A program made the position numbers and the translations under genes. From NCBI RefSeq assembly GCF_016798325.1, contig NZ_JAERVO010000003.1, positions 455,608 to 519,607 of the forward strand: a stretch of DNA of 64,000 nucleotides. Direction: 5' to 3'. The DNA is from Marinobacter mangrovi. Lineage in GTDB: Bacteria > Pseudomonadota > Gammaproteobacteria > Pseudomonadales > Oleiphilaceae. The notes under the pieces were generated by a model. It saw only the letters and a program-made list of their open reading frames with translations. It did no database searches and was not told where the DNA came from. Below, piece by piece: positions 24,573-43,333 of the stretch; position 1 is the stretch's first letter; each line of letters begins with the position of its first letter.

Positions 24573-27500
24573 CTAGAAGGTGACTCCTTTGTCCAGCAGC
24601 CAGCGAACGACTCGCTCATTATTTTGAGACAAGGCGCGATCAAGGTAAGGCGATCGGGAAAATCCGGGCCATTCTTTATGGTTCTCGAGGTAATGGGTGA
24701 TGGCCCGGTTTTCACCCACATAGGCCGACTTGATCAAGTTCCTGTCCACCCATGTATAGTCCAACGAGGCGCCCGCATCCAGAAGTCGTTCTAAAACGCG
24801 GACTCCGGCATAAGTTGCCGCAGTCAGGATGGTATGGGCTTTCATGTGTGCACTGACGCCACTCGGGTCAGCACCGGCATTGAGTAGTACATCCACCATA
24901 TCCTCGTCGTTGTTTTTGACTGCCATGTACAGAGGACTTGAATGATCCTCATCATAAACATCTACCCAGGCGCCTTGTGCCAACAACGCACGTGCCATGG
25001 TGGCGTCGCCACTCATGACAGCCACCATCAGGGGAGTGCGGCCTTTGGCGTTTCTGGGATTAATATCGAGCAGATGTCCCTGGAGTGATTTGAAGCGGTC
25101 TGTATTGCCTGATGACACCGCAATAAACAATGCTCGGTTGCTGACCCGGGCATCATGGTCGAGCAGGAACCGCAGTGCTGGATCGTTATCGGATAGGATC
25201 GCAGCCTCCACCGCGCTCATTTGAGTGTTTTCATCGGTGGCATTGATCTTTTCAGGCGTGGTATCCGTTGGCAGGCTTCCCTCCAGGACCCCAGCAACGA
25301 CGGGGTTGACGATCTTGCCACTCTTCAGGAGCAGCTGCGCCAATGCTTTTCTGACGGCAAACGGCGTCGACGCTGCGTCGTTTTCGAGAGCGAGATCTGC
25401 CGGTGTCTTGCCATCGTTGTTGGTCGTATCCAGGTCTGTGCCTGCATCGAGCAGTAGTTGGATCAGCGTGCCATCCGTGTTGGCTTTGATGGCTCTGTGC
25501 AGGAGGGTGTCTCCCAAAAGCCCACGATCGTTGATGTCCAGGTCGTCGATCACCCCTGCCAGCCAGAGGGCCGGTGCGTCAGCTGCAATGCCCTCGATGT
25601 GCTCCTCCAGGTAGTCATCACGATCCCACCAGCCGATCGAGTCAATCAACCGATCGGCCAGGGCCGTGTCGCCATTGCGTAGGGCCACAGAAACGGGTTC
25701 CACGCCATTGAATAGATCATCGTCTACCTTGACCTCCACATCGGCCTCGAGCAGCGTGCGCATGGCTTTCAGGTTGTTGTACTGATCGGCGATGGATAGG
25801 AGTCCCTGATTCATATAGCCCTTGTTGAGGTCCAGGTTCTGCCCGATCAGGGTCTCTAAACGGGATTGGTCGTGGGTGGCGAGGGCAGCAACGAGCATAC
25901 CCATGACGGGGTCCTGATTCAGGTTTCTCTGGCTAACCGCCTGGCGATGCTCTGAAAGATAGGCTTTCACGCCGTCCAGCCTGTACAGCTCGCTTAGCAG
26001 GCCCGCCCGTATCGGGGGGTGTATGCCCCGCTGAATCAAAGCCAGTGCATTGTTGTCATTGGTGTGAAGCGCAATGTCGAGAGCGGTTTTTCCTGACGCA
26101 TCTTTTGCGTCTGTGTTTGCGCCCATGTCGATCACTTTGTCGAGCAGCTGCGGTGTTCCATAGGCTGCGGCGAGATGAATGATCTGCCGTCCCCGACTGT
26201 CCGCCTTTTTTATGATCGCAGGTACCACGAGTTTAGAGGCGATCTCGGCATCACCCGCACGAAGCGCAATATGAGCCGCCGTCTCGCCATTGTTGTTTGT
26301 CAGGGTCGGATCTGCACCGGCCTTGAGCAGCGCACCAACAACCGGGTCTTTCTGATGCTTGGCAGCGAGCATCAACGCGGTATTGCCAAGCTCATCGGTG
26401 GAATCCAGCGAAACAGGATCACCGATGAATGACTGAACTTGATTGAGGTCGCCTTGGGCGGCTGCCGCTCGAAATCGCATAGCGCCTGACTTGGTCTCAC
26501 TGTCCCTTTTAAGGGACGGTTGCGTTCCGTTGTTATCAGCCGATGTCCCCGATGCCGAGGCAAGAACATCGTGTATAAACTGGAAATCCTCTCTTTCCGA
26601 GATGAGTAGAGGTGAGCGGTCCGCCGAATGGCCGATTCTGGAGGGCGACGCTCCATGCTTTAACAGCAGCCGGACCGTGCGAATATCGGCATGTTCCACC
26701 GCAGTCGACAGGGGGCTCTCATAATCCCGGGGACCGCCTTCCGGGAGGGCTCCGTTCTCAAGTAGGATCCTGGCAACCTCGGAATCCCCCTTTTCGACAG
26801 CCTTGGCAAGCAGGCTGTAACCGCCCGGGGCCAGGGGGGCGCCGGCCTCGATCATTGTTTTCAGAAGATCTGGATTAGAATGAGTGATCGCTAGGGCGGG
26901 AGCCGAGCAGAGGGGGGTGTTCACGTTGGCTCCCAATTCAAGAAGATCCACAGCCAGAGACGTATTACCTGCAAAAAGGGCTGCACACAGTAGCGGATCT
27001 TTCTTTGCTCCGTAGGATTTCGCCAAGTCCAGCGTTGTCTGGTTCCAGGCTGGCATTTCCGCAGCGGCCTTCAGAACAGCGGCATGTCGTGATGCGATTT
27101 CCTTGCCGGGCCAAACCTGCTTGGCCAGTTCAACGTTGCCTTCCTGCGCGGCCTCTTCAAAGGGAGTGGTTCCGTATTCGCCGGTTTCGGAAACGGATAG
27201 ACCCTGCTGGATGGCCCACTCGCCAGCCTCTTGGTTGCCGGCATCCGCGGCGTACTTAAAAAATTTGGATAAGGGAACACCTTGGGCGTGAAGCCAATCC
27301 AATAACTTTAGGTGATGGCTGTTGACGGCCGCACGAGCAACCTCGGACGGATCGAAGTAGCCGCGCTGAATGGCTGCCCTGACGATGTCGGGCTGTCCTG
27401 CATCAAGCAGCCAGACGGCTTTATCGTAGGTTCTGAACTGCCATGACTGTTGCGGGTTGGCGCGAGCCAACAGAAGGGCATTTGCATCGTGTTGACCGTG

Positions 27501-28415
27501 GTGAAAGCCGTTGGCCAGGACTGTGCCATCTATTTCGGCGCCGGCATCCAGCAGGGCTTTTACAGTCTGAGCGTCGTTACCTCGAGCGGCCAGCCTTAGT
27601 GGTGTCCACCACTCCTGGCAGGAACGAGTCGCGGCTTCGTCTACGTTGAGCGAGAGCAGCTTTATGACGGCTTGGGTCTGTTTACCAATGAGCGCCCAGT
27701 GCAGCGCATTACAGTTCTTCGTCTGCAAATTGGTGCGCAACGCCTCATTCGTCAGCGGGGACAGGTTCCCCGTATAGGCGAGCCAGTTTGTCAAGCCGAG
27801 CACGGGCGGGGGCGTCCAGTTGCCTTGGGCCTTCCAGTACTCGACCAGTTTGATCTGGTGTAGCAGCTTGTCTTTGGCTGACAGAAATGCTGTGCCCTCA
27901 GTTCCATGATCAAGGGGGTTGGCGCCGAGTGTCAGCAGTAACTCGGTGGTGGCCGGTTCGGCATAATTGATTGCAATCTGCAAGACGCTGTGGGTAGCCG
28001 ATGGCGGCCTGGCATTGAGGTTCATTCCCTGTGCCTGGAACCACCGGATGGCATCGGTCCTGTTCGAGGCGACGGCATGGAAAAGAGGCGACCAGCCTGT
28101 TCCATCGAACTCGTTCAGGGCGACCCCTTCTTCGGATAACAACTCAAGGACGTCAATGTGACCTGAGTCGACGGCTGCGGAGACCAGCCGACTGGCATCG
28201 GCGCCGACTTTGGGTAGAGGCAGTCCCTCATGAACCAAAGCCTTCAGGCCCTCGACGTCACCATTGCGTGCGAGCGTGAATAAGGCCGTTTCCGCCGAGG
28301 CGGGCGCACCCTGCAGAAGCAGGGATAGCAGCAGAGCCTGTCGTAACAGGGCGTTGCTCTTGGCGGCGAGTTTCTGTCCGATCGAAGAAAAAGAGGGGCA
28401 GTTACTTGGTCCCAT
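24573..28415 (-). CDS. Giant ankyrin-repeat protein (1280 aa) with N-terminal signal peptide
   Basis: Signal peptide 'LLLSLLLQGAPASA'; more than 25 ANK-type repeats throughout ('GNTALMLAAKHQKDPVVGALLKAGADP', 'GRTPLMVAVMSGDATMARALLAQGAWVDVYDEDHSSPLYMAV'). Confidence 0.8.
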   Translation of the reverse strand: MGPSNCPSFSSIGQKLAAKSNALLRQALLLSLLLQGAPASAETALFTLARNGDVEGLKALVHEGLPLPKVGADASRLVSAAVDSGHIDVLELLSEEGVALNEFDGTGWSPLFHAVASNRTDAIRWFQAQGMNLNARPPSATHSVLQIAINYAEPATTELLLTLGANPLDHGTEGTAFLSAKDKLLHQIKLVEYWKAQGNWTPPPVLGLTNWLAYTGNLSPLTNEALRTNLQTKNCNALHWALIGKQTQAVIKLLSLNVDEAATRSCQEWWTPLRLAARGNDAQTVKALLDAGAEIDGTVLANGFHHGQHDANALLLARANPQQSWQFRTYDKAVWLLDAGQPDIVRAAIQRGYFDPSEVARAAVNSHHLKLLDWLHAQGVPLSKFFKYAADAGNQEAGEWAIQQGLSVSETGEYGTTPFEEAAQEGNVELAKQVWPGKEIASRHAAVLKAAAEMPAWNQTTLDLAKSYGAKKDPLLCAALFAGNTSLAVDLLELGANVNTPLCSAPALAITHSNPDLLKTMIEAGAPLAPGGYSLLAKAVEKGDSEVARILLENGALPEGGPRDYESPLSTAVEHADIRTVRLLLKHGASPSRIGHSADRSPLLISEREDFQFIHDVLASASGTSADNNGTQPSLKRDSETKSGAMRFRAAAAQGDLNQVQSFIGDPVSLDSTDELGNTALMLAAKHQKDPVVGALLKAGADPTLTNNNGETAAHIALRAGDAEIASKLVVPAIIKKADSRGRQIIHLAAAYGTPQLLDKVIDMGANTDAKDASGKTALDIALHTNDNNALALIQRGIHPPIRAGLLSELYRLDGVKAYLSEHRQAVSQRNLNQDPVMGMLVAALATHDQSRLETLIGQNLDLNKGYMNQGLLSIADQYNNLKAMRTLLEADVEVKVDDDLFNGVEPVSVALRNGDTALADRLIDSIGWWDRDDYLEEHIEGIAADAPALWLAGVIDDLDINDRGLLGDTLLHRAIKANTDGTLIQLLLDAGTDLDTTNNDGKTPADLALENDAASTPFAVRKALAQLLLKSGKIVNPVVAGVLEGSLPTDTTPEKINATDENTQMSAVEAAILSDNDPALRFLLDHDARVSNRALFIAVSSGNTDRFKSLQGHLLDINPRNAKGRTPLMVAVMSGDATMARALLAQGAWVDVYDEDHSSPLYMAVKNNDEDMVDVLLNAGADPSGVSAHMKAHTILTAATYAGVRVLERLLDAGASLDYTWVDRNLIKSAYVGENRAITHYLENHKEWPGFSRSPYLDRALSQNNERVVRWLLDKGVTF

Positions 28416-28621: not shown

Positions 28622-28954
28622 TTAATCCCCATGATCCGGAAGGAAGGTTTTGGCAAACGTGCCCAATTCTTTGGAAACTCTCTCGCGAATCGCCGCGCGG
28701 TCTTCCGGAGACAGGTCGTACCTTTCTGCCAAAGCGACGAAATCGTCTTCATGCAGCGTAACGGTCAGGCGGGGTCTGGCGCGTTTTTTGCGGTAGGACA
28801 GGCCAAGCACCTTGCGAACCATGTCCGACGGGTTGAGGTCCTGCATGACGGCAGCAACCCTGAAGGCCCGCTGGATATCGCTGGAAAGGTCAAAGGCCAT
28901 TTGGACAGCCCTGACGGCTTTATATTCACGCGACCAGTCGGATTGCTTCTTCAT
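28622..28954 (-). CDS. Hypothetical small protein
   Basis: 110-aa ORF; no family recognised. Confidence 0.3.
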   Translation of the reverse strand: MKKQSDWSREYKAVRAVQMAFDLSSDIQRAFRVAAVMQDLNPSDMVRKVLGLSYRKKRARPRLTVTLHEDDFVALAERYDLSPEDRAAIRERVSKELGTFAKTFLPDHGD

Positions 28955-29017: not shown

Positions 29018-29707
29018 TTATTGAGATTGCTTCAGACGTGCCAGCACGTTGTCGACAGCTTCGTTGCCGCCATCGATCCCGGCGGCCTGCAGTTTTTCGT
29101 CCAGATCTTCGCCAGTCATTTCTTTTTCCAGCTGACTCCGGGCGGATTGCCGGTCTTCCTCGCGGGCCTGCCTCTCACGAATGCGTTCAAGCGTTTCCTT
29201 GGCGGTGCTGAGGGAGGATTGGTTGCTGTTGATGTTGGTATCGATTTGGGCCGTTGTCCGAAGCACCCGCTCATTGGTCTTAACGACCTGCAGCTCTCGC
29301 CGATATTCGCCCAATTGCTTTTCAGCTCGCTTAACGCGTTCTTTCAAACCGTTGATGCGCTCTCTAAGCAGGCTGTGGGCTTTAGTGAGTTCTTGCTTGC
29401 GCTGCTCGTGGCCGACGATACGTTCGGCCACTTCCCGTGCAAGTGCCTCCTGGCCGGCTGAGAGGGCCTTGCGGGCGTCTTCTTCCCGTCTTTCGGAGTT
29501 GGTCTGTTCCGTATCGATCTGACGTGACAGGGAGGCGGCTTCAGCCATCAGGGCGGCGAGTTCCTGTTTTGCCTGCTTGAGCTCGTGCTCACCGTCTCGC
29601 AGTTCCTGCTCCAGGATGCGGCTACCCTGGCTGTCCACAACAGCCTCGCCCACTTCGTTGACGCTTCCGCGAACGGCGGTCAGCAATTTCTTGAGTACGG
29701 CTTTCAT
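29018..29707 (-). CDS. PspA/IM30-family protein (YjfJ-like)
   Basis: All-coiled-coil 229-aa protein with PspA-like N-terminus and heptad-rich body. Confidence 0.7.
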   Translation of the reverse strand: MKAVLKKLLTAVRGSVNEVGEAVVDSQGSRILEQELRDGEHELKQAKQELAALMAEAASLSRQIDTEQTNSERREEDARKALSAGQEALAREVAERIVGHEQRKQELTKAHSLLRERINGLKERVKRAEKQLGEYRRELQVVKTNERVLRTTAQIDTNINSNQSSLSTAKETLERIRERQAREEDRQSARSQLEKEMTGEDLDEKLQAAGIDGGNEAVDNVLARLKQSQ

Positions 29708-29722
29708 GTCATCGTCCCCTGA

Positions 29723-30178
29723 TCAGTCCAGAAAGTCTTCAAATGTCTGTAACAGGTCAATTGCATTGTCGGCGAGGGTGACCAACTCCTGCATCACCTC
29801 GGCTTCACTCGAGGTTGGTGTCAGCGCGCCGTAAACGACGTAGTGCTGGTCGACCTTGCCGAGAGAGCTGAGGGGCATGGGCACGCTCAGTCGCAGCATG
29901 TTCTCGTGCAGGTCGGCCAGCTGGCCACTGCGAATTTCACGCTCTTCGAAGAGGTAGACAAGGCACAGTATCTGGGTGTCGGTGATTGTGAGGTAGACAG
30001 GTGTCTCTTCAGCACCGGAAACGACAATTTGCAGCACGGGCTCTTCCCCGGCAACGAGCATGACGTTGAAAGTCCGCCCCGCATGGGAGGCTTCGCCCAG
30101 GGCAAGAATGAGGGATTGGGTGTCCACATTAAGCTCCTTTTTCCGTGGCTCGTACAACTGCGGCTCCGGCTGAAGCAT
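29723..30178 (-). CDS. DUF2170-family protein (YjfI-like)
   Basis: About 150 aa immediately upstream of the PspA-like gene, as in E. coli yjfIJ. Start set at 'MLQPEPQL'; the track ORF extends to 30286. Confidence 0.45.
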   Translation of the reverse strand: MLQPEPQLYEPRKKELNVDTQSLILALGEASHAGRTFNVMLVAGEEPVLQIVVSGAEETPVYLTITDTQILCLVYLFEEREIRSGQLADLHENMLRLSVPMPLSSLGKVDQHYVVYGALTPTSSEAEVMQELVTLADNAIDLLQTFEDFLD

Positions 30179-30374
30179 GCCAAATCGCGGTTGTAACTGA
30201 ATGACATAAAATGTCACAAAGCTGAGTCTATACCTTAAAATTAATTTCTTGCAATAAAATATTTTGTTGCGGTATAACGTCTCCACCGTGACAGATTATG
30301 TCGTGTTTGTGTGTCGCGACCGCTTCAGGAAGGAGCGAAGCTGTCGTCGCCAGAGCCAGGGACGCCAAGAAAAC

Positions 30375-31001
30375 ATGGAAGCCTTTCTTTCAATCACTTT
30401 TTCCTTCCCGACTGCGATTTTTACTGTTCTTCTGATTGTGGCGGTCGCCTACTGGCTTATTTCGATGGTGGGGTTGCTCGATATCGATACGGTCGACGCG
30501 GATGTTGATGGTTCGGTCGACCTGGGGGGGCTGATGGTTACTCTGGGACTTCAGGGCGTCCCCCTGCCACTTGTTCTGACCGTGTTGTTTCTCGTCTGCT
30601 GGTTGTTTACCTATTTCTGTGACCTGTTCCTCGGGCCGGTCGTTGGTGATGGTTGGCCGCACATCCTGTTCGGTGTGATCGTCATTTCTATTGCCCTGGT
30701 GATCAGCCTCCTGATTACGGCCGTGCTCGTCCGCCCCCTGCGACCTCTGTTTCGACGGGCTTATCGCCGCCCACAGCAAAAGCAGCTGGTTGGAGCACCC
30801 TGCGTGGTCCTGGCCTTCAATTCGAAAAAGGGGCGAGGGCGTGCTGAAGTCGTTCGTGATGGCGCCCACCTCATTCTTCAGATTCGAAGCGATGCTCGAT
30901 TCGGTCGTCGCGAACGTGCGGTTCTGGTGGAATACCTGCCTGACCAGCAAGCCTACTGGGTGGTCCCAGAGGTTGATTTTCAAACCGGCGACGCCGGTTA
31001 A
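30375..31001 (+). CDS. NfeD-like/YqiJ-family (DUF1449) inner-membrane protein
   Basis: Three TM helices then a C-terminal OB-like soluble domain; directly upstream of a flotillin gene (yqiJK-like pair). Start at 'MEAFLS'. Confidence 0.55.
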   Translation: MEAFLSITFSFPTAIFTVLLIVAVAYWLISMVGLLDIDTVDADVDGSVDLGGLMVTLGLQGVPLPLVLTVLFLVCWLFTYFCDLFLGPVVGDGWPHILFGVIVISIALVISLLITAVLVRPLRPLFRRAYRRPQQKQLVGAPCVVLAFNSKKGRGRAEVVRDGAHLILQIRSDARFGRRERAVLVEYLPDQQAYWVVPEVDFQTGDAG

Positions 31002-31027
31002 CTTGCCCAGCAACTCAGGAGAGAATC

Positions 31028-32968
31028 GTGGATATGGACTTGTCTTGGATCATGCCGGTGCTGGTATCTGCCGGGATACTGGTGGTCGTGCTACTGGCGA
31101 TTTTGACGCTGTTCAAGGCGTTCTATCGAAAGGTGGATCAGGGAGAGGCGCTAATCGTCAACGACCTGTCCGCCACACCGAAGGTGTACTTTACCGGCGC
31201 GATGGTGCTGCCAGTCATCCACCGCTCGGAAACCATGAAAATTTCCGTGATTACGTTGGAGCTGAACCGGACCGGCAATGAAGGCCTGATTTGTAAGGAC
31301 AACCTGCGAGCGGACATCACCGTTGCCTTCTACCTGCGGGTGAATGAGACAGCGGAAGATGTCCTCCGGGTTGCCAAATCGGTGGGAGTGGGGCGCGCCT
31401 CGGACCGTACGGCAGTCAATGAGCTGTTCAACGCGAAGTTCAGCGAAGCATTAAAAACCGTCGGTAAGAAGATGGAATTCATGCAGCTCTTTGAGGAGCG
31501 GCAGCGGTTTCGGGATGCCATCGTCGAGACCATTGGCGAGGATCTTAACGGCTATATCCTGGAAGACGTGGCCATCGACTACCTGGAGCAAACGCCGAAG
31601 AGCGCGCTGGATCCGAACAATATCCTGGATTCCGAAGGCATTCGCCGGATCACCGAAATTACGGCGATGCATAATGTGGAAACCAATCGCTTGGAGCGGG
31701 ATCAGCAGCTTGAGATCCAGCGGAAGAATGTATCGGCCCGGGAAGCGTCGCTGGAACTGGAGCGTACCCAGGCGGATGCCGAGGCTCGCCAGCAGCGCGA
31801 GATTGAAACCCTGAAAGCCCGTGAGGCTTCCGAGACGGAGCAGGTGCGTCAACAGGAGCGTGCTAAAGCTGAGGCCGCACGGATCAAAACCGACGAAGAA
31901 GTCGAGATTGCCGAAGAGAACAAGCGTCGCCAGACCGAAATGGCCGTCAAGGCGCGTGAGCGTGCGGTGCAGATTGAAGAGGTCCGTATCCAGCAGGCGC
32001 GTGAACTGGAGGACGTGAACCGCGAACGCGCGGTGGAAATCGAGCGCATCGGTATGGAGAAATCGCTGGAGGAAGAGCGTAAGGAGATTGCGGTCATTAC
32101 CAGCGAACGCATTGCGGTTGAGCGCGGTGTGGCTGAGGAAGAAGAGAACATCAAGGATGTTCGTAACCGTTCCGAGGCTGAGCGCCTGAAAGTGCAGAGC
32201 GTGATTGCGGCGGAAGCGGATGCCGAAGAGAACAAGCTCAAAGAGGTCAAAGCTGCAGAAGCCGCCTATGAGCGGGCTAAGCTGGAAGCTGACGAAGTCG
32301 TGATACGCGCTCAGTCGGATCTGGATTCGGCGGAGAAGAAAGCCGCTGCGGACGAGAAGTCGGCCCGTGGTCGGCAGGCACTGGCAGCCGCCGACGGTCT
32401 TGCCCAGGCTCAGGTCATGGAGGCCCGTGCGACAGCTCAGCGGGCTGAAGGCTTGGCCCAGGCGGAAGTCAAAACCGCGACCGCCAAGGCTGACGAAGAG
32501 GCTGGCATGGCCGAGGTCCGCGTACTGGATCATCGCCTGGATACTGAAGCCCAAGGCGAAGAGAAGATGGGGCTGGCCAAGGCCCAGGCGCGCGAAGCCA
32601 TGGCCCGCGCCGAGGCCAATGGTCTGGTTGAGAAGCTCAAGGCCTACGACAACATGTCCGAAGAGGCTCGCCACTTCGAGCAGTTCCGCATGAACCTCGA
32701 GGTCCACGAAAAAGAAACCATGGCCACGATCGAAGCGCAGCGCATCGGCATGCTGGAGAATGGCAAGGTGATGTCGGCGGCCCTGAAGGACGCCAAGTTC
32801 GAGATGATCGGTGGCGATGGCGACATCTTCGAGAAATTCGCCAAGGGCCTGGGCTATGGCAAGACCGTACAAGGGGTTCTGGACAAGTCACCGGCACTAC
32901 AGGCCGCTCTGGCGGGAATTTCCGACCGTGCCCTGAACGGCAAGTCGAATTCCACCGAAAACGCCTGA
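31028..32968 (+). CDS. Flotillin-like SPFH/band-7 protein (YqiK-like)
   Basis: N-terminal TM, SPFH domain ('DNLRADITVAFYLRV'), long Glu/Ala/Arg-rich coiled-coil tail. Confidence 0.8.
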   Translation: MDMDLSWIMPVLVSAGILVVVLLAILTLFKAFYRKVDQGEALIVNDLSATPKVYFTGAMVLPVIHRSETMKISVITLELNRTGNEGLICKDNLRADITVAFYLRVNETAEDVLRVAKSVGVGRASDRTAVNELFNAKFSEALKTVGKKMEFMQLFEERQRFRDAIVETIGEDLNGYILEDVAIDYLEQTPKSALDPNNILDSEGIRRITEITAMHNVETNRLERDQQLEIQRKNVSAREASLELERTQADAEARQQREIETLKAREASETEQVRQQERAKAEAARIKTDEEVEIAEENKRRQTEMAVKARERAVQIEEVRIQQARELEDVNRERAVEIERIGMEKSLEEERKEIAVITSERIAVERGVAEEEENIKDVRNRSEAERLKVQSVIAAEADAEENKLKEVKAAEAAYERAKLEADEVVIRAQSDLDSAEKKAAADEKSARGRQALAAADGLAQAQVMEARATAQRAEGLAQAEVKTATAKADEEAGMAEVRVLDHRLDTEAQGEEKMGLAKAQAREAMARAEANGLVEKLKAYDNMSEEARHFEQFRMNLEVHEKETMATIEAQRIGMLENGKVMSAALKDAKFEMIGGDGDIFEKFAKGLGYGKTVQGVLDKSPALQAALAGISDRALNGKSNSTENA

Positions 32969-32986
32969 TCCACGCCTCGGACCCGT

Positions 32987-33013
32987 GTGCCGGCCTGTCT
33001 GACCGGCCGGCAC
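32987..33013 (+). terminator. Perfect 9-bp GC stem-loop (gtgccggcc-N9-ggccggcac) between flotillin and the downstream giant gene; no U tract
   Basis: Inverted repeat read directly; lies 18 nt after the flotillin stop and 42 nt before ATG 33055. Confidence 0.3.
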
Positions 33014-33054
33014 CGGGCCCACTCCCTTCTTCGATTTCGTATCCAGGATGATCC

Positions 33055-36000
33055 ATGTCGACGGACCGCAGCGAGCTTGAATCCATAGTCAGGGAAGGAA
33101 CCGCCTTTGAAACCATTCAGAAGCGACTGAAAGAACAGGGCCGCCAGCTCCGCTCATCGGTCGAATCCTTGAACACCACACGGTCGGAGCTTTTTGGCAG
33201 CGCCGGTATGCAGGTGCTAGGGCGTGGGCGTATCCGGACAGAGAACAACTCGGTGGCGCGGGATGTTGTGCGCATCGGGGATCGTCTGCTGTTCGGGTTC
33301 AATGTTCAGCTTGGGCTTCGCAAAGCCCTCGCGATTGGGGACGTCTTCCGCCTCTATGGTCTGAAGGACTCCGAGGACGGTTTCGAGGTGACCGAAGCGC
33401 CCATTGAGGGCAGCTTCCTGGAAGACCGTCGCTTCCAGACGGATTTCCGGGAACTACAGCAGTATTACAGCTACGCCACGCTGTCCCAGTTGGCGATCAT
33501 GAGCGGCATGCTGCTGATGTCCTTCCGTATTGGAGAGAAACTGAGCGATCGTCGGGTCTTTCGTTGGGAATTGGCGGCGAATGGGGAAGTCAGCCGCTAT
33601 GTGGACAATCGCGGCGAGCGTGATCTGGTGTTTCCCGGCCGGTTCAGCTTCCCGTGGGTGACCGCGGGGCGCGACAATCAGGTCCAGGGCCGGGCCCCGC
33701 ACCTCAACATCGCGGATACCCTTTTCATCGATAACCTGCGCGGCGACATTACCTTCAAGGTTGAAAACAACACCAAAACCGGCGAAGGCATCTTCTCTGA
33801 TCCGGTCGACTCTGACTCCCAGTCACTCGACGATGCGACTTTCGAGTATGCGGACCTCGGGGAGGTCATTCTGGTTCGCATCCTGCCATTCGGCGAAGAT
33901 CATTGGCGCTACTATCTGTTCAACCGCGTCACGAAACTGGTGGAGCGTAACGATGCCATGGGAGGATCCGTCGTGACCCTGCCGGAGAACCATGGCCTTA
34001 TTTTCCCGACCGGCTATTACCTGTCCAGCGGCGAGCTAAAGACGTTTGCCGTCCCCGATGTGGATCTCCGTTTCGAACGTGCGATCCGTTCGCCGAACGG
34101 CGAAGACGTTCTCTACGTGTTCTACGGGGAAGATGCGGGCGAGGTGGTGCTCTATCGCTACAACCTCATCCGAAAGGAAGCTGATGCGCCGATGATCGGG
34201 CATGGTTTTGCCCTGTTCGAAAATGGCCATCTCGCCATTTTCAACGCGGACAGCGAACCAACCCTCGTTCATCCGCTTCAGCTCTGGACGACGCCGTTCA
34301 TGTCCGAGAGCTATCACGCCCAGGACGCCGTGGGTAATGACACCCTCATGGGTCGTATTGGGAACCCGGAACTGGTCAGAGGCATCGCCGAGATTAATTC
34401 CATCGTCACTCTGGTGGAAAAGTCGACGGCTTCCGAACAGCACTACACCACACTGATCCGGACGTCCGACCGGGTACTCAATCAGTTCTACTGGATCGGA
34501 GAGCTTGGTGACGAGGTGCAGGGCAATGACCTTGCCGGTCAGTTGGCCCAGGTACGAAAGACCGCCGAGCTGATGCTGGACGAGTACGAAAAAGTCCAGA
34601 GCATTCGCAGCCAGACCGCTATGGCCGTCAGCGAAGCGGGTGAAGTCCAGGGAAAGCTGTTGCGGAGCCTCAAGCCTGACAGCTGGAAAACCCCCGACCA
34701 GTTCGTGGCGCACCTCAAGCAGGTGCGTGATCATCGCGGGGTCGTACGGACCTTGCGGGATCGTCGTTACATCGACGAATCGGCCATCGAGGCACTGGAG
34801 CAGGAACTGGACCAGGCCGAGCAGCGACTGACGGACCGTACGTTTAACTTCCTGGCGACGCCGGCGGCGCTGGATGGGTACCGCAAGACCCTGGCGGATC
34901 TCGCCCAGTCCGTGAACGACGCCTCGTCAAGGGACGAACTGGCCAAGTGCGTCGAACAGTACCGCGAACTTACCGCCGGGTTGGATATGATCCAGGGCAT
35001 GCTGGCTTCCCTGTCCGGCGACAATGCGAGCCTGGAAACCCAGATTACCGAGAACATCTCGGGCATCTACGCCCGGATCAACCAGCAGCGGTCCGAGGCC
35101 GAGATTCGCCTTAAGGAGCAAGGCAGCCAGGAGGCCAAGGCGCAGTTTGCGGCCCGTATGCGGCTGTTTGAGCAGAGTCTGTCCAACGGTGTCGGGGCGC
35201 TGACAGAACCGGACGCCTGCGATGGCCTGATGACCCGGATGCTGGATCAGCTTCAGGAACTGGAAAGCCAGTTCGGTGAGTATGATGAGTTCCTGGCCGC
35301 CATCCTGGAACAGCGGGAGGCTGCCCACGAGAGCATCGAGGCGCGCCGCCAGCAGTTGCAGGACCAGCGCCAACGTCGCATTAACACGCTGAACGATGCG
35401 GCGGATCGCATACTTCGCAACATCGCGCGCCGCACTGAGCGTTTCGAAAGTCAGGAAGAACTGCACGCCTTCTTTGCCTCCGACGCCATGGTGGCCAAGG
35501 TCCGCAGCATGGCCCAGGAGCTGCGCGATATGGGCGCCAGCATGGAGGCCGATGACTGCGAGGGGCGGTTGGCGTCGGAACGGGATTCGGCGTTACGCAG
35601 CGTTCGTGATCGTGCCGACATCTACGAGGATGGCGGGCAGGTCATACGCCTGGGGCCGCGTCACCGGTTTTCCGTCAATCGCCAGGAGGTGGACCTGACG
35701 CTGGTCCCCCGGGACGATCGGGTCTTGCTCCATATGACCGGTACGCAGTATTACGAGCCCATCGAGGACGCCGAGTTGGAATCCCTGAAGTCATACTGGG
35801 ACATGAGCCAGCCGTCGGAGTCGGAAGCCGTATACCGGGCGGAGTACCTGGCCTTTCTGGTGATGGGCGCCTTGCAGGAAGAGACCGAGGAATCCGTCAA
35901 CGTCGCCAACCGCGACGAACTTGCCGACTATATCCGGCGGTTCGCGTCGCCGAGGTACCGAGAAGGCTATGAGAAAGGCATCCACGATCACGACGCGGCA

Positions 36001-38292
36001 CTGATCGTCAGCACCCTGTGGCCGGCGATGCAGAGCGCAGGCCTACTTCGCTTTGGGCCGTTGCCGCGGGCGCTGGCGATGCTTTATTGGGCTCGGATTG
36101 AACCGGATCAGGGTGCTGCCCGGGTGTTGCGTTCGCGTTGCCTGTCGGCGGGCATCCTCAATCGCCTGATGAACGCGACCGAACTGATGACCACACTGGT
36201 CGAGGAAGTTCGCCCAGACCTCGCGGCGTTCGCCGCGCAGCATGACCTGCCGGCTGACGATGTGATTCTGGACAGTGCGGCGGAATACCTGGTCGTTCAA
36301 TTGGCTGATGAGACCGGTGACTTCGAGGTGACCCAGTACGCCAGCAGTCTGGCCAACGGGTTCGCGGAGGGCATGAAACAGAAGGGTCAGTACAGTCAGT
36401 TCGAGGAAGCGCTGGCCGTGGTGGCCGATCAGCCGGGCCCACGCTGGCGTATTACATCGCACTGGCTGACGGCCTGGGCAAAACAGTTTGGTGATGCCGC
36501 CACATTGCATTATCTGCCAGAAGCAATCGCTATGCTCAATGTGGGCGCTCGTCTGTCATTTCACGCCCGCAACGTAGAGTTGGCGTTTACGATTGAGGGG
36601 TTGCTGGGTCAGCACCCGCGCATTCAGGACCGCACGCTATCCCTGCAGCTTGATGAAGTCGATCAGCGCCTCCGCCATCACCGCGATGTGGTCATTCCTG
36701 GATGGAATCGATTGCAGGAAGTTCGTCAGGATGTGTTGGCCCGCTGGCGGGATCGCCTCCGACTGGAGGAATTCAAGCCGCGTCCACTGTCCTCGTTCGT
36801 GCGCAACAAGCTGATCAGCGAGAGTTATTTGCCCTTGATTGGTGACAACCTGGCCAAGCAGATGGGCACGGTGGGCGAGGATCGCCGCACCGACCTGATG
36901 GGCCTGCTGATGATGATCTCCCCGCCGGGCTACGGTAAGACCACTCTGATGGAATACGTCGCCAGCCGGCTGGGCCTGATCTTCATGAAGATCAACTGCC
37001 CGAGCCTGGGCCATGACGTTATCTCTCTGGACCCGGAAAAGGCTCCGCATTCCACCGCGGAAGCCGAGCTGATCAAGCTAAATTTGGCGCTGGAGATGGG
37101 CAACAACGTCATGCTGTACCTGGACGATATCCAGCACACGCATCCTGAGTTCCTGCAAAAATTCATCTCTCTCTGCGATGGCAGTCGACGAATTGAAGGG
37201 GTCTGGCGCGGGCGCACTCGAACGTACGATATGCGTGGAAAACGCTTCTGTGTGGTCATGGCCGGTAATCCCTACACCGAGAGCGGTGACGTATTCCAGG
37301 TGCCGGATATGCTTGCCAACCGGGCGGATATCTACAACCTCGGTGATGTGCTCAGCGGTATGGAAGATGTATTCGCCCTGTCCTATATCGAGAACAGTCT
37401 CAGCTCCAATAAGGTTCTGGCGCCGCTGGCCACGCGGGGTATGGACGACTTCTACCGATTTGCCGATCTGGCCGGGGGCCGGGAGGTGCCCAGTTCTGAG
37501 TTCGAACATGATTACAGCGGCGCTGAGCGAGAGGAAATTGTCAGTCTGTTGCAGAAAATGATTCGGGTGCGTGAAGTCGTCTTGAAAGTGAACCAGGCGT
37601 ATATCGCGTCCAGCGCGCAGGCAGAGGCCTATCGAACCGAGCCGCCATTCCGGCTTCAGGGCAGTTACCGCAATATGAACAAACTGGCTGAGAAGCTCTC
37701 CCCGGTCATGAGTGACGATGAGCTGGAAGACCTCATTGACGATCACTATCTCGGGGAAGCGCAGTTGCTGACTCAGGGCGCCGAGGAAAACCTGCTCAAG
37801 CTGAAGCACTTGCGGGGCACTCTGACAGAAGAAGAAAGCGGGCGCTGGCTCTCGATCTGCGAGGAATTCCAGCGCCGCCAGATGGCCGGTGGTGACGAGG
37901 AGACCGGCGCCAAGGTTGTGCGGCAACTTGGGCTGATCGTCGAAACTCTGGCTAAGCTGCGTGACTCGATTCCCGGCCAGGAAGGGGCGTCGAATGTCAT
38001 CCGGGACATCCTGTCGGCACAGCAGGCCGACTTTGGTCGTTTTGCAGAGACGCTTCGGGATGGCCTAAAGGGGGTTAACGTCGAGCCCGCAGTCACGGTC
38101 AATGTCGCCAGCCCGGCCGGATTGGGCGAAGCCCTGCAGGCGTTCGCCGACGTTTTTGAGCAGACTGTAGTGCCGCTTGTGCAACTCATGGACGGCAAGC
38201 TGGGCCTGGATCTCAAAACCCAGACGGAGATGAGCCGGGTATTGCGCACTGTGGAGGCCCTGCAGGCTCAGATCGAGGCGCGTGCGGAGTAA
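33055..38292 (+). CDS. Giant protein (1745 aa) with C-terminal MoxR/AAA_5-like ATPase domain
   Basis: Walker A 'SPPGYGKTTLMEY', Walker B 'VMLYLDDIQH', 'VVMAGNPYTESGDVFQVPDMLANRADIY' (MoxR-like sensor region); long helical N-terminal 1200 aa. Confidence 0.6.
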   Translation: MSTDRSELESIVREGTAFETIQKRLKEQGRQLRSSVESLNTTRSELFGSAGMQVLGRGRIRTENNSVARDVVRIGDRLLFGFNVQLGLRKALAIGDVFRLYGLKDSEDGFEVTEAPIEGSFLEDRRFQTDFRELQQYYSYATLSQLAIMSGMLLMSFRIGEKLSDRRVFRWELAANGEVSRYVDNRGERDLVFPGRFSFPWVTAGRDNQVQGRAPHLNIADTLFIDNLRGDITFKVENNTKTGEGIFSDPVDSDSQSLDDATFEYADLGEVILVRILPFGEDHWRYYLFNRVTKLVERNDAMGGSVVTLPENHGLIFPTGYYLSSGELKTFAVPDVDLRFERAIRSPNGEDVLYVFYGEDAGEVVLYRYNLIRKEADAPMIGHGFALFENGHLAIFNADSEPTLVHPLQLWTTPFMSESYHAQDAVGNDTLMGRIGNPELVRGIAEINSIVTLVEKSTASEQHYTTLIRTSDRVLNQFYWIGELGDEVQGNDLAGQLAQVRKTAELMLDEYEKVQSIRSQTAMAVSEAGEVQGKLLRSLKPDSWKTPDQFVAHLKQVRDHRGVVRTLRDRRYIDESAIEALEQELDQAEQRLTDRTFNFLATPAALDGYRKTLADLAQSVNDASSRDELAKCVEQYRELTAGLDMIQGMLASLSGDNASLETQITENISGIYARINQQRSEAEIRLKEQGSQEAKAQFAARMRLFEQSLSNGVGALTEPDACDGLMTRMLDQLQELESQFGEYDEFLAAILEQREAAHESIEARRQQLQDQRQRRINTLNDAADRILRNIARRTERFESQEELHAFFASDAMVAKVRSMAQELRDMGASMEADDCEGRLASERDSALRSVRDRADIYEDGGQVIRLGPRHRFSVNRQEVDLTLVPRDDRVLLHMTGTQYYEPIEDAELESLKSYWDMSQPSESEAVYRAEYLAFLVMGALQEETEESVNVANRDELADYIRRFASPRYREGYEKGIHDHDAALIVSTLWPAMQSAGLLRFGPLPRALAMLYWARIEPDQGAARVLRSRCLSAGILNRLMNATELMTTLVEEVRPDLAAFAAQHDLPADDVILDSAAEYLVVQLADETGDFEVTQYASSLANGFAEGMKQKGQYSQFEEALAVVADQPGPRWRITSHWLTAWAKQFGDAATLHYLPEAIAMLNVGARLSFHARNVELAFTIEGLLGQHPRIQDRTLSLQLDEVDQRLRHHRDVVIPGWNRLQEVRQDVLARWRDRLRLEEFKPRPLSSFVRNKLISESYLPLIGDNLAKQMGTVGEDRRTDLMGLLMMISPPGYGKTTLMEYVASRLGLIFMKINCPSLGHDVISLDPEKAPHSTAEAELIKLNLALEMGNNVMLYLDDIQHTHPEFLQKFISLCDGSRRIEGVWRGRTRTYDMRGKRFCVVMAGNPYTESGDVFQVPDMLANRADIYNLGDVLSGMEDVFALSYIENSLSSNKVLAPLATRGMDDFYRFADLAGGREVPSSEFEHDYSGAEREEIVSLLQKMIRVREVVLKVNQAYIASSAQAEAYRTEPPFRLQGSYRNMNKLAEKLSPVMSDDELEDLIDDHYLGEAQLLTQGAEENLLKLKHLRGTLTEEESGRWLSICEEFQRRQMAGGDEETGAKVVRQLGLIVETLAKLRDSIPGQEGASNVIRDILSAQQADFGRFAETLRDGLKGVNVEPAVTVNVASPAGLGEALQAFADVFEQTVVPLVQLMDGKLGLDLKTQTEMSRVLRTVEALQAQIEARAE

Positions 38293-38331
38293 ATTCGTCC
38301 CTCAGAGATCAGGGGCGACAATTAACAAGGA

Positions 38332-38535
38332 GTGTTTGTGAGCACATTGGAAGTGTTTCTCGAGAGCCGGGAGAAAGATGGCGTTTGGCTATTCAATCGC
38401 CGCTGGCGGGATTGCCCGTTCTACGGGATCTATGATGACGAACGCGGCGACGACGTATGGCAGTCGTCTTCGGATTTTTATCTGCAAAATGCCAGTTCTT
38501 GGGTGACTCTCAGCCGTTGCGATGCTGACGACTGA
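38332..38535 (+). CDS. Small hypothetical ORF
   Basis: 67-aa ORF right after the giant gene; weak support. Confidence 0.2.
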   Translation: MFVSTLEVFLESREKDGVWLFNRRWRDCPFYGIYDDERGDDVWQSSSDFYLQNASSWVTLSRCDADD

Positions 38536-38640
38536 AGGGTTGCTGCGTAGCATCCGGATATAGCGGAAGTGTTTTGATGAGCAGGCCCGTGCCTTTTGAA
38601 CACCATGGAATGGAAAAATAACCCAAAGGAGTGTGGCTGA

Positions 38641-39354
38641 ATGTACTTGGAGTACGTGCCGGCTGAGCAACAGTATGATTATTATGCGAAAGAGTGTTAT
38701 GCAAACTCAATGTCTGGGTCGAGTTTTCATGTTTTCCAGAAAAGCGTGCGGCTGGTTGATGATAAAGTCATTGCGGCCTCTTTCATTAAAGGCATAACGG
38801 TACTTCGACTTAAAGATATAAAATTCATCGAGTTGAGAGTCGACCATTCTGACGCTTCGGTCTGCTGTAATATATGGGGGCATTCCGGAACAGGTTATAT
38901 CACGCTTTGTGATTACAGCCTCGTTAATGGGTTAAATGCCGTCGCGGAGGTCAAAAGAAAGGAGTTCGTATCGTTCATCGAGACTTTGCTTGGACGTTTG
39001 AAGGAATTGGATCTGGCACAGCAAGTGGAATGCAAATATGTTGGACCAGAAACGATAAAAATTGAACTGATCGAGATGTTTTGGTCTTTTCTCTTTGCGC
39101 CAATCGTTATGACTATTCTTATGACGCTCATGATAGTGGTAGGCGTTCCAAGTTCTTCGACCGTAATGACGACAATATGCGTTGTACTCGTTTTCCCGCT
39201 CATGTTTTTGGGATGGTATATCAGCCCCCGCGTTGTGGATTCTCTGTGTGAAACGTGTGTGATTACTTATCCGGTGCTTCCGGAACGGCTATTCGAACTG
39301 GCCGACGGCGTCATCACCAGAGATTTATCGAAAGAAGACGAGGATAAAAAGTGA
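38641..39354 (+). CDS. Hypothetical membrane protein (low-GC gene)
   Basis: 237 aa, two C-terminal TM helices, AT-rich codon usage unlike neighbours. Confidence 0.4.
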   Translation: MYLEYVPAEQQYDYYAKECYANSMSGSSFHVFQKSVRLVDDKVIAASFIKGITVLRLKDIKFIELRVDHSDASVCCNIWGHSGTGYITLCDYSLVNGLNAVAEVKRKEFVSFIETLLGRLKELDLAQQVECKYVGPETIKIELIEMFWSFLFAPIVMTILMTLMIVVGVPSSSTVMTTICVVLVFPLMFLGWYISPRVVDSLCETCVITYPVLPERLFELADGVITRDLSKEDEDKK

Positions 39355-40586
39355 GGGGTTGCGCCTAGTCGGCGAGTCGATACGGCGCTGGCCCCTGTCG
39401 TTCGGTGGATGATGTGCGGCTTTTGGGCTGATTTTCGAAGTTTCATATTTAGCGAGAGATTATATCTCAAACTATTCATGAGAGTTCATCGGGTGGCGTG
39501 CTCACCCTGTTGTTATCGCTGCTCATAGGCATTTCTTTGTTTCCGTTGTGCGCGATGGACAAGGATTAACGGTAGGCTCTGCGTCTGACCCGAACCTTGC
39601 CATTCCGTTCTGTTCGTCACCAAGCTGGCTCTTCGTAGAATGAAGGTTCGAATCAAAGCGCGGTATTAAAGTTCAGCTTGATCTCCAGAGAATGCAAGCA
39701 TGACACCCATGCTGGGAAAAGCGTCGTCGTCCGACTCATCGAAAGAGGTGTTTGGGGCGTCGGCCTTGCAGCTGGAAACCGCCAAGCGACGGGATAACCG
39801 TTGGTACTTGGTGGGGCTCAGAGCCGCCAGCGAAGATCGTCTTGGGTCGGATAACGAGAATCCGGGACGACTCGTTAAGAGGCCTTTTGCCCCGAGCTAG
39901 ACCCAATTTGGAGCCGATGCGAGGTGATGTCTCTGTTGTAGGCGAGCCAGTGACTGACTTGCCAGCTGCGCCCACTGTGATTTCACGGTTCCATTCCGTA
40001 TAGTCACGGCTGTCTGAAAGCCCGTGTGGTATTATGGCAAGCGCGTAAGCATACAGCGCCTGGCGGAATTCTGCGTTCTTGGTCTCTTCGTCGGCATGCG
40101 AGATCCGCGACTGGTCCAGCGACACCGTCCTGCGGACCGAAACGTCTTCGTCCGCCTCCAATGTCTGTTCTTCAATCTGTTCGTACCCTTAGGCGGAGAT
40201 CACTCTTCTGCGAGTCGATATTTGCGGACGCTAACGAGTCGGCCATCGGGAAAAATGGGCGCTACGATGGCGCCAGTCAGGGATTCCAACTGATCAAACG
40301 TGATGGCCTCTATATCCCGGTACAGATGTCCGTCAACGAAACCGGAGAGACCTACGCGGCAATCAGGTGTCCAAGCGGGCGTTTTTCAGTCGCTGGGTGA
40401 GTAAGAGTAAAAGAGTTCCCACAATCGTGGTCGGGCACCGATGCCGTATCGGTTGGCCGAGCGATCGCTACATCGTTTAGGCAGCGAAATCGGAAAAAGC
40501 TGCAAAACGCGTACTTGATGCGGGAGCCAGTTGGCGTAAGGGCGGCCTGAGCTTTTGCCACTTGCAGACGATTTCAGTTTTGTAAT

Positions 40587-41291: not shown

Positions 41292-41529
41292 GAGCGATCC
41301 TAAACCAGACCTGGCAGTCGCGCTGTGACTCGGTGTGATGAATCCGGCCGAGCACGGCAGCGCACTCCGGAATAGTCTGCAATGTGTAGACAGGGCGCAT
41401 CAAAAGGATCAGCTGTCCCGTGTGCCCGAGACATTAAATGTGATTGATTCCAGAAATCATAACCGGGAATTTGCTGCCCCAACTCTGATGAGGCTTGGGT
41501 TCAAGAGATAAGCCATCAAGGATGAAATA

Positions 41530-41868: not shown

Positions 41869-42034
41869 GGTCACCGGCCTAAGAGGAGGGTGGCCCGCAT
41901 GTTTGGGACCTCAAGGAGAAACCATCAGTCTTTCAAACCTGCACCTTAATTCCCTTGATATCCGCTCAATTCTGGCCCTTTAAAACTTAACTTGACCTAG
42001 GATTTTTCATGTTCAAGTTTTTGCTTCTTTCAAG

Positions 42035-42217: not shown

Positions 42218-42283
42218 TCGCGGCCTGTTTCTCTAGGACTTTGGGGGAACATTCAATTTCAAAGATGGTGGAGGAGCAGGGGG

Positions 42284-43309: not shown

Positions 43310-43333
43310 GAGCAAAAGGGCCTGTTCGGAAAC

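Follow-up and report, generated by a model that had tools for sequence, protein, structure and literature searches.

The 64 kb window (the whole stretch of Marinobacter mangrovi DNA analyzed here, 64,000 nucleotides) contains a flotillin gene followed by a gene for a giant AAA+ ATPase, and raises the question of what such an ATPase does beside a flotillin. A preliminary description of the region recognized five ORFs in two divergent units, with a yjfI-like and a pspA-like gene on the minus strand and a yqiJ-like gene, a yqiK-like flotillin gene and the gene for a 1745-aa ATPase on the plus strand, and proposed that the ATPase is tied to flotillin. Each ORF was found to exist where it had been placed, and the layout was borne out. 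A sixth gene, orf110, and operator-like sequences common to both units had been overlooked.

The pspA/yjfJ-like gene (29018..29707, minus strand) encodes 229 aa and matches Pfam PspA_IM30 with an E-value of 6.9e-44 (150.5 bits; cutoff 33.9). It adjoins the yjfI-like gene on the same strand (29723..30127), which matches Pfam DUF2170 (E 6.8e-32), so that the DUF2170-PspA adjacency characteristic of the operon class discussed below is present. The mechanical ORF of the yjfI-like gene extends to 30286. The GTG at 30127, preceded by AAGGAG-N6 as read from the sequence, is probably the true start and would give a protein of 134 aa; the homologs have 134 aa as called in M. salarius and 135 aa in Hahella. 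The DUF2170 fold is that of a CesT/Tir-like chaperone according to the literature. The NCBIfam BacA model gave only 55.5 bits with the DUF2170 protein of the window, compared to a cutoff of 300, and about 65 N-terminal residues of BacA are missing from this protein.

The yqiJ-like gene (30375..31001, plus strand) encodes a membrane protein of the short NfeD type with 208 aa, three to four transmembrane (TM) segments and a C-terminal beta-rich domain. Its mechanical ORF spans 30264-31001, with ATG 30375 as the probable start. The initial naming as NfeD/YqiJ is valid only as a remote relationship, because a profile of 36 sequences aligned with E. coli YqiJ (hhalign probability 93.4%, E 2.4e-7, 138 columns), whereas no Pfam family scored above threshold with the protein (YqiJ_N, E = 1.2), none of the 36 homologs matched YqiJ or NfeD models at E of 0.01 or better, and BLASTP against E. 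coli YqiJ gave no match. The flotillin gene (31028..32968, plus strand) encodes 646 aa and carries the features of the YqiK/SPFH family: a membrane anchor (one N-terminal TM in the TM scan, aa 1-36), an SPFH/Band_7 domain (Band_7, E 3.1e-11, only when the N-terminal 247 aa were scanned alone), a long Glu/Ala/Arg-rich coiled coil and homology to E. coli YqiK (BLASTP E 3e-43, 29% identity over 426 aa). The flotillin C-terminal model was absent from the Pfam matches.

The GC hairpin reported earlier in the gap that separates the flotillin and ATPase genes proved to be real, with a GC-rich stem-loop predicted at about 32979..33020 (plus strand). The 92-nt stretch 32966-33057 folds at -35.8 kcal/mol (z = -2.4), and a canonical U-tract was found to be absent from the stem-loop. 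Strong stem-loops of different sequence occupy the same position in related loci L001-L006, L007, L009, L030, L052, L056, and L072.

We examined 80 related loci, the closest of at least 564 matches (42% identity or more), and counted gene order in the 72 loci whose upstream DNA reaches 3 kb or more. A YqiJ-like gene and an SPFH gene were found upstream of the homolog of the ATPase gene (33055..38292), in that order and on one strand, in 72/72 loci, which include Gamma-, Beta-, and Zetaproteobacteria, Myxococcota, and Actinomycetota. A script flag on L039 arose solely from overlapping stop-to-stop ORFs, and this locus was counted as co-directional. In P. aeruginosa, the corresponding bacABCDEF genes ("biofilm-associated cluster," PA3732-PA3727/PA14_16140-16200; PMC10948618, PMC13086221) gave RT-PCR products across each gene junction from bacA through bacF, and BacB-F rose 6- to 13-fold together in a bacA mutant (PMC10948618). 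These observations uphold the proposed tie, and a functional link of the giant ATPase to the flotillin/YqiJ pair is supported.

The association itself is already published. The preliminary description presented it as new and held that flotillin/NfeD operons have no known ATPase partner, but the same operon is found in Ravi et al., 2024 (PMC11237479; preprint 2020) and in the P. aeruginosa bac work. The bac core has the same set and order of genes, namely DUF2170 (BacA), PspA-like (BacB), YqiJ/short-NfeD-like (BacC), flotillin (BacD, PaFlo3), and giant ATPase (BacE), and this order was found in the Pseudomonas loci L008, L009, L015, and L017. Published bac junction primers map or translate onto the 3' end of the SPFH gene, an N-terminal ATPase motif (PKNNCIA, consensus TENNCVA) and a C-terminal motif (IKVMD); the flotillin is therefore encoded by bacD and the giant ATPase by bacE. 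The P. aeruginosa counterpart of the yqiJ-like gene, PA14_16160, was termed "short NfeD," and deletion of paFlo3 reduced biofilm by about 20% only (PMC13086221). In Ravi et al., the components of the "CesT/Tir-PspA + band-7/flotillin + AAA+ + YqiJ" operon class correspond one for one to the Marinobacter cluster, PLD is added in some Proteobacteria, and short flotillin-YqiJ(-ATPase) operons occur without PspA; both variants were reproduced among the related loci. On balance we favor the view that the region is the M. mangrovi version of the bac operon and of this class.

The region between the two units contains two copies of a 15-bp palindrome. Palindrome 1, TGACATAAAATGTCA (30202..30216), is perfect, sits shortly after the predicted minus-strand -10 and is conserved in an alignment with L001-L006 and L052. 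Palindrome 2, TGACAGATTATGTCG (30289..30303), sits shortly after the predicted plus-strand -10 and is conserved in Marinobacter loci. It differs from TGACA-N5-TGTCA by one mismatch, and the sole further match in the 64 kb window is at 60558. Back-to-back sigma-70 promoters were predicted between the palindromes (30227..30278) by reading the sequence. They would use a common palindromic -35, TTGCAA (30249-30254), with TATAGA as the minus-strand -10 (30232-30227, spacer 16) and TATAAC as the plus-strand -10 (30273-30278, spacer 18), so that the two palindromes are symmetric, each after a predicted -10, on either side of the -35. The elements TTTGCAA, GTCTATAC, and G(G/T)TATAA are kept in the alignment of Marinobacter loci. 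An automated promoter scan gave another plus-strand candidate than the one read by eye. A sigma-54 site has been proposed for P. aeruginosa bacA, while none was found in the Marinobacter intergenic region.

The overlooked gene, orf110 (28622..28954, minus strand, 110 aa), is a candidate regulator of the cluster. It lies 63 nt downstream of the pspA-like gene, was found directly after pspA in six other Marinobacter loci (59-67% identity), and occurs in 15/80 related loci. All 2336 proteins of its family are named "hypothetical" and have no precomputed Pfam domain; two UniRef clusters of the family carry the name "Ribbon-helix-helix protein CopG domain-containing." A few of 14 members gave sub-threshold matches to five ribbon-helix-helix (RHH) Pfam families, RHH_1 (7.6e-4), RHH_10, RHH_9, RHH_5, and FitA-like RHH, and hhalign placed CopG on unit 1 (E 8e-4) and NikR on unit 2 (E 4e-3) in register. 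No match to PDB sequences was found. On these sub-threshold matches orf110 is a candidate tandem RHH-like protein. It co-occurs with the palindrome TGACAT-N3-ATGTCA across Gamma- and Betaproteobacteria: the palindrome is present in the promoter region upstream of DUF2170 in 14/15 loci with orf110, the fifteenth, L046, having a degenerate copy, and of the 65 loci without orf110 a single one, L067, carries it upstream of the cluster. This co-occurrence could partly reflect common ancestry of an operon subtype.

We consider it somewhat more probable than the opposite that orf110 would bind both palindromes and co-repress the two divergent units, and that the intercistronic hairpin would reduce ATPase expression relative to flotillin. 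In PMC11237479 an RHH transcription factor is given, in the passages retrieved, only for a sister class with a spermine-synthase gene; the same passages contain no operator palindrome, divergent layout, hairpin, or Zn-ribbon links, and the searched parts have no occurrence of rhomboid. No earlier description of orf110 after pspA, of its co-occurrence with the palindrome, or of the positional conservation of the hairpin was found in the literature. The addition made by this window is a regulatory handle, a candidate repressor and two operator-like sites, through which the entire module could be induced in experiments.

The ATPase gene (33055..38292, plus strand) is a single ORF of 1745 aa, and the product is a BacE homolog. 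The preliminary description recognized only a C-terminal MoxR/AAA_5 domain. However, residues 1-480 form a helix and a beta-propeller with Pfam DUF3686 at aa 32-479 (E 3.8e-171), and aa 481-860 form a coiled coil with DUF7902 at aa 605-688. A conserved region without an assigned domain follows at aa 861-1260. The AAA+ module is located at about aa 1280-1600 and not at the very end, being followed by a helical tail (aa 1600-1745), and it matches PF00004 as well as AAA_5. The propeller was modeled confidently, and an AAA+ fold was found for the module. The protein is soluble; the TM scan found no TM segment. Walker A, the sensor 1 Asn, the Arg finger, and the sensor 2 Arg are invariant among the homologs, and this conservation counts towards ATPase competence. 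At Walker B, Asp-Asp is invariant in place of Asp-Glu, and hydrolysis may therefore be slow or atypical. ClpB/Lon-like and MoxR-like matches to the module tie, and the sequence shows no evident aromatic pore-loop motif; threading or unfolding as the mechanism therefore lacks specific support.

The minus-strand unit encodes a yjfI-like chaperone, a PspA-like protein of ESCRT-III type and orf110, and the plus-strand unit encodes a YqiJ/NfeD-like membrane protein, a flotillin of the YqiK type and the giant soluble AAA+ ATPase. For these proteins we propose the following mechanism. The flotillin and its YqiJ-like neighbor would oligomerize into a scaffold at the inner membrane, on the cytoplasmic side. 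The ATPase would form oligomers via its AAA+ module, dock by the beta-propeller and the coiled-coil arm, and use ATP to drive the assembly, disassembly, or extraction of flotillin-scaffold components; in clusters with PspA, it may act on the PspA polymer too in membrane stress. As a whole this mechanism is plausible but somewhat short of probable. We hold a little more tentatively that the ATPase is a dedicated ATP-driven remodeling motor for flotillin scaffolds and, where these occur, for PspA/ESCRT-III polymers, one subtype being under a small tandem-RHH repressor at TGACAT-N3-ATGTCA operators. In the literature searched, no organism was found with physical or genetic evidence that ties the ATPase to assemblies of flotillin or PspA.

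Alternatively, the ATPase might mainly serve the PspA-like protein and recycle a bacterial ESCRT-III polymer in the manner of Vps4, the role of flotillin being only to bring this motor to the membrane. PspA is a member of the ESCRT-III superfamily, and ESCRT-III is taken apart by Vps4. Ravi et al. [quoted passage not shown] Both Marinobacter units carry the same operator-like palindrome, and the DUF2170/PspA pair is attached to the triad in 40/71 loci (33 co-directional and 7 divergent; PspA itself was detected by phmmer in 37). However, the pair is optional: 31/71 loci have the triad without a PspA or DUF2170 gene within 5-10 kb, while the flotillin pair is never missing, and an MIT domain was sought in the ATPase and not found. 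This makes a motor devoted to PspA unlikely, and a flotillin-directed motor remains the preferred reading.

Another possibility lies in the family first assigned to the protein: a MoxR-type chaperone ATPase would mature or insert a specific client protein or cofactor and be tied to flotillin only indirectly. Against it, PF00004 has the higher score (27.5 bits), and the structure model is without the helix-2 beta-hairpin insert. A gene for a von Willebrand A (VWA) domain partner, the typical neighbor of the MoxR family, was not found among the conserved neighbors, and 1745 aa with a propeller and a coiled coil is unlike MoxR proteins of roughly 300-500 aa. We regard this reading as improbable.

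Large NTPases with repeat domains also resemble the architecture of conflict-system NTPases, and the accessory genes vary by lineage, with PLDc_2 in 15 loci, rhomboid in 10 loci, Zn-ribbon-rhomboid fusions and Zn-ribbon proteins. The ATPase could accordingly sense or signal in an anti-phage system with PLD and rhomboid as membrane-directed effectors. We find this slightly more doubtful still, as PADLOC gave no meaningful match for any of the six proteins (coiled-coil noise only, E 1.6e-4 or worse), the cluster is syntenic across Marinobacter species and more than 99% identical between P. aeruginosa PAO1 and PA14, and the phenotypes described relate to biofilm, rhamnolipid, and virulence. A role in DNA repair is suggested only by names, namely the Pfam description of DUF3686 ("ATPase involved in DNA repair") and the product name "DNA repair ATPase" that NCBI gives to a 100% identical M. 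mangrovi protein. This reading is very improbable and the database name is without support, as no DNA-binding, nuclease, or helicase domain was detected, no solved-structure sequence matched, the invariant neighbors are membrane proteins, and no mention of DUF3686 was found in the literature searched.

An ATPase constantly accompanying one flotillin subfamily is an obvious candidate motor, which in P. aeruginosa sits in a virulence/biofilm cluster, and the question bears on the assembly and recycling of bacterial flotillin scaffolds and PspA polymers. As a dedicated remodeling motor, the ATPase would be a widespread bacterial counterpart of Vps4 or of SPFH-AAA-protease supercomplexes.

Compared to Pseudomonas, where all bac genes are co-directional and followed by a PLD gene (bacF), the DUF2170-PspA unit is inverted in Marinobacter with orf110 after pspA. 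This inverted unit was found here, in six other Marinobacter loci, in L052, and in Hahella; no PLD or rhomboid gene was found within the 64 kb window. E. coli YqiK is a clear homolog of the flotillin and E. coli YqiJ a remote homolog of the membrane protein; the DUF2170 family corresponds to YjfI and the PspA family to YjfJ. In E. coli, yqiJK and yjfIJ are unlinked, yqiK is followed by sibD/ibsD and not by an ATPase gene, and no DNA resembling the ATPase gene was found at megablast level in 5,426 complete genomes. Prohibitin with the m-AAA protease and SLP2-PARL-YME1L are SPFH scaffolds coupled to AAA+ machines. HflK/C-FtsH is likewise described in PMC13220708 as an SPFH scaffold working with an AAA+ machine. 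The cluster resembles these systems in coupling a flotillin-family scaffold gene to an AAA+ ATPase gene, and some related loci add a rhomboid protease gene, as is found in the mitochondrial SLP2-PARL-YME1L complex. It resembles ESCRT-III/Vps4 in having the gene for PspA, an ESCRT-III superfamily member, and that for an AAA+ ATPase in one module.

The open reading frames of the membrane-stress cluster named in the preliminary description were found in the sequence at their reported coordinates. The PspA/IM30 protein is encoded on the minus strand at 29018-29707 (Pfam E 6.9e-44). Next to it, on the same strand, a mechanical open reading frame at 29723-30286 encodes the DUF2170 (YjfI family) protein (E 6.8e-32). 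The Pfam match begins at residue 55 of this frame, AAGGAG-N6-GTG is located at 30139-30125, and the homologs annotated by gene callers are 134 aa (M. salarius) and 135 aa (Hahella) long; the true DUF2170 gene is therefore most likely 29723-30127. On the plus strand, the gene for the YqiJ-like membrane protein most likely starts at the ATG at 30375, which is kept across Marinobacter and gives 208 aa, the length called in a homolog. The protein was predicted to have 3-4 transmembrane segments. It and its homologs fell below every Pfam threshold and a pairwise search found no similarity to E. coli YqiJ, while a profile of 36 homologs matched E. coli YqiJ with a probability of 93.4% (E 2.4e-7) over both the transmembrane region and the C-terminal beta-rich part. 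The flotillin-family protein (31028-32968, plus strand) has a single N-terminal transmembrane segment, and 426 of its residues aligned with E. coli YqiK at 29% identity (E 3e-43). Its Band_7 match (E 3.1e-11) was obtained only after removal of the coiled coil, and its sequence had no significant match in the PDB.

The giant ATPase is encoded by one open reading frame of 1745 aa (33055-38292, plus strand) and shows 100% identity to a Marinobacter mangrovi protein named "DNA repair ATPase" by NCBI. This name agrees with the Pfam description of DUF3686; it finds no support in domain content, neighboring genes or literature and looks like a propagated misnomer. The C-terminal MoxR-like domain is not the only recognizable one, as had been proposed: Pfam identified DUF3686 at aa 32-479 (E 3.8e-171) and DUF7902 at aa 605-688, in addition to the AAA module from about aa 1283. 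The region aa 481-860 is rich in residues that form coiled coils. The region aa 861-1260 is conserved, yet matchless in Pfam and PDB sequence searches. Pfam scans of aa 841-1260 and aa 1441-1745 returned no domains, and neither the whole protein nor its middle region had a significant match among PDB sequences. A predicted structure of aa 1225-1745, of medium quality (pLDDT 71, core 80-92), has an AAA+ fold. No transmembrane segments were found in the ATPase, and its nucleotide-binding motifs are intact. The motifs GYGKT (1292-1296) and LYLDD (1354-1358) and the residues N1405, R1423 and R1539 were invariant in the homolog alignment. LYLDD, the Walker B motif (window 37114-37128), carries Asp-Asp instead of the usual Asp-Glu in all 11 aligned homologs and throughout a 28-sequence alignment; hydrolysis of ATP may accordingly be slow or atypical. 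Within the region lacking Pfam and PDB sequence matches, the motif GIHDHDA (aa 977-981, window 35983-35997) is strictly conserved and may bind a metal or take part in catalysis.

We searched one genome per GTDB species for homologs of the ATPase and found at least 564 loci, of which the best 80 (42-80% identity) were fetched with 10-kb flanks. These 80 came from Gamma-, Beta- and Zetaproteobacteria, Myxococcota, Actinomycetota and one MAG labeled Clostridia. Among them, every locus whose upstream flank reached 3 kb or more (72/72) had the YqiJ-like and SPFH genes upstream of, and co-directional with, the ATPase gene. This count includes one locus (L039) that our script flagged only because of overlapping stop-to-stop ORFs. 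The YqiJ-like, SPFH and ATPase genes thus form an invariant triad. The PspA module is optional: within the same best 80, 40 of 71 loci had a DUF2170 gene farther upstream, and PspA was detected by phmmer in 37. The 40 DUF2170 genes were co-directional with the triad in 33 loci and divergent in seven (six Marinobacter and one Cellvibrionaceae); the layout in Hahella is divergent as well. Since the flotillin pair is never missing and PspA is often absent, flotillin is more likely than PspA to be the primary partner of the ATPase. The preliminary description, which would have fallen had homologs shown no conserved linkage, was largely right in its observation. The linkage to flotillin is very strong among these best 80 loci, and we judge the proposal that the ATPase acts with flotillin microdomains or a PspA-like envelope response to be right.

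The further claim that flotillin/NfeD operons have no known ATPase partner was wrong, as this operon class has been published (Ravi et al., 2024; PMC11237479) and includes the bac cluster of P. aeruginosa. Ravi et al. (mSystems 2024, preprint 2020; PMC11237479) describe a five-part operon that includes a CesT/Tir-like DUF2170-PspA pair and a YqiJ/YuaF-type 3TM protein, with a PLD protein in some Proteobacteria, as well as shortened versions without PspA. The bac cluster is made of the same genes as the module in the window, and RT-PCR bridged each pair of neighboring genes from bacA through PA14_16200 (PMC10948618). In Pseudomonas loci, the published 16180/90 forward primer aligns with the SPFH gene at its 3' end (0-1 mismatches). 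The translated reverse primer (PKNNCIA) resembles the N-terminal ATPase consensus TENNCVA. The translated 16190/200 forward primer (IKVMDR) resembles the C-terminal ATPase motif PL(I/V)xxMD, and the 13 peptides detected for PA14_16190 are compatible with a large protein (PMC10948618). These primers and peptides identify the flotillin gene as bacD (PaFlo3 in PMC13086221) and the giant ATPase gene as bacE; bacF probably encodes the PLD protein. E. coli carries yqiJK without the ATPase gene, for which a megablast against complete E. coli genomes gave no match; this may account for the belief that no partner was known. Our literature search found no study of the ATPase itself. A role in defence was discarded, as the PADLOC matches were coiled-coil noise only. 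The locus very probably represents a bac-type module, in a rearranged version of what has been published and touched on by experiments.

The accessory genes around the module differed by lineage among the best 80 of the at least 564 loci. In this set PLDc_2 genes were present in 15 loci and rhomboid genes in 10, mostly as the next gene behind the ATPase gene. In three related loci (L004-L006) and in M. salarius (L082), orf110, the 110-aa protein gene after pspA, is followed by a Zn-ribbon-rhomboid fusion, which takes other positions in L003 and L052. Betaproteobacteria carry a Zn-ribbon protein between the flotillin and ATPase genes. At the same place, three Pseudomonas-group loci (L008, L013 and L017) have a TerB-like 79-aa ORF scoring 23.8 bits, just below the threshold of 24.4. 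Examples of the recurring rhomboid, Zn-ribbon-rhomboid, stand-alone Zn-ribbon (PF13453) and PLD (PLDc_2) genes are at L008 15178-16467, L017 15148-16443, L082 2385-3479, L058 9282-9884 and L083 13318-13869. No PLD, rhomboid, Zn-ribbon or TerB-like gene was found in the window. Here orf110 is followed 206 nt downstream, on the same minus strand, by a gene (24573-28415) for a 1280-aa protein consisting nearly entirely of ankyrin repeats, with sub-cutoff matches to Legionella Dot/Icm Ank effectors. An ankyrin gene adjoining the cluster was not found in other Marinobacter loci; L004-L006 and L082 have the Zn-ribbon-rhomboid gene instead. On the other side, GC content falls to 0.51 immediately beyond the ATPase gene (38293-44000), compared with about 0.59-0.61 within it. 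Of the next two ORFs, one (38332-38535) encodes 67 aa behind a good RBS and the other (38641-39354) a 237-aa membrane protein; both lacked Pfam matches and had no counterparts in six other Marinobacter loci. The segment 38293-44000 may therefore have been recently acquired.

A strong GC stem-loop is located directly after the flotillin stop codon (32979-33020) and lacks a U-tract. Its position is kept with unrelated sequence in 12 related loci (L001-L007, L009, L030, L052, L056 and L072). It may set the ratio of flotillin to ATPase by stabilizing or attenuating the transcript.

A sixth cluster gene, orf110, lies on the minus strand (28622-28954), beginning 63 nt beyond pspA, and keeps this place in six Marinobacter loci. 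Among the best 80 loci it was present in 15, exactly those with the most window-like DUF2170 protein; where the genes are co-directional, pspA precedes it and the yqiJ-like gene follows. The orf110 family comprises 2336 unnamed proteins. The sequence contains two strand-helix-helix units, matches five RHH families weakly in Pfam, and aligned in register with CopG and NikR by hhalign (reference sequences entered by hand); an RHH label also occurs among UniRef names in the family. This is suggestive, not proof, of a tandem ribbon-helix-helix DNA-binding protein. A weak profile match of orf110 to the Vps4 MIT domain (E 0.11) was taken as chance despite the relationship of PspA to ESCRT-III, and tblastn of orf110 against plasmids found no match.

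The 247-bp divergent intergenic region contains two copies of a 15-bp palindrome, TGACAT-N3-ATGTCA, one perfect (30202-30216) and one with a single mismatch (30289-30303); only one further match was found in the 64 kb. Both copies are kept in Marinobacter and L052. Among the best 80 loci, 14 of the 15 with orf110, from Marinobacter to Variovorax, had the palindrome a short way upstream of DUF2170, and the fifteenth (L046) had a degenerate copy; of the 65 without orf110, one (L067) had the palindrome upstream of the cluster. This co-occurrence spans Gamma- and Betaproteobacteria. Between the two copies, a palindromic TTGCAA could serve as -35 element in either direction, followed after N18 by TATAAC on the plus strand and after N16 by TATAGA on the minus strand. 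With these predicted promoters each palindrome would span roughly positions +4 to +18 of the unit it belongs to, a layout that fits a single repressor acting on both. A sigma-54 promoter was rejected, as TGGCAC-N5-TTGCW with up to two mismatches had no match in 30100-30400 and occurred in the window as expected by chance; none was found upstream of DUF2170 in related loci, where gene starts are uncertain. The shared operator-like sites independently support the two units being one functional module. That orf110 acts through these candidate operators is an idea we favor slightly. As far as our searches show, two modest points are new to the literature: the pairing of regulator and operator, and the hairpin.

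For the function of the module, we propose that flotillin and the YqiJ-like protein would assemble into a scaffold at the membrane's inner face. The ATPase would oligomerize, dock via its propeller and coiled coil and, under membrane stress, remodel the scaffold, together with PspA where present. This proposal draws on precedents of SPFH scaffolds working with AAA+ machines, such as HflK/C-FtsH (PMC13220708), and on the ESCRT-III/Vps4 pair. Taken as a whole the mechanism is tentative, and we would give it somewhat less than an even chance. Prohibitin with m-AAA and SLP2-PARL-YME1L are further SPFH scaffolds coupled to AAA+ machines, while ESCRT-III and Vps4 pair a polymer with an AAA+ ATPase. 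Related loci that combine genes for SPFH, AAA+ and rhomboid proteins bring to mind the mitochondrial SLP2-PARL-YME1L complex.
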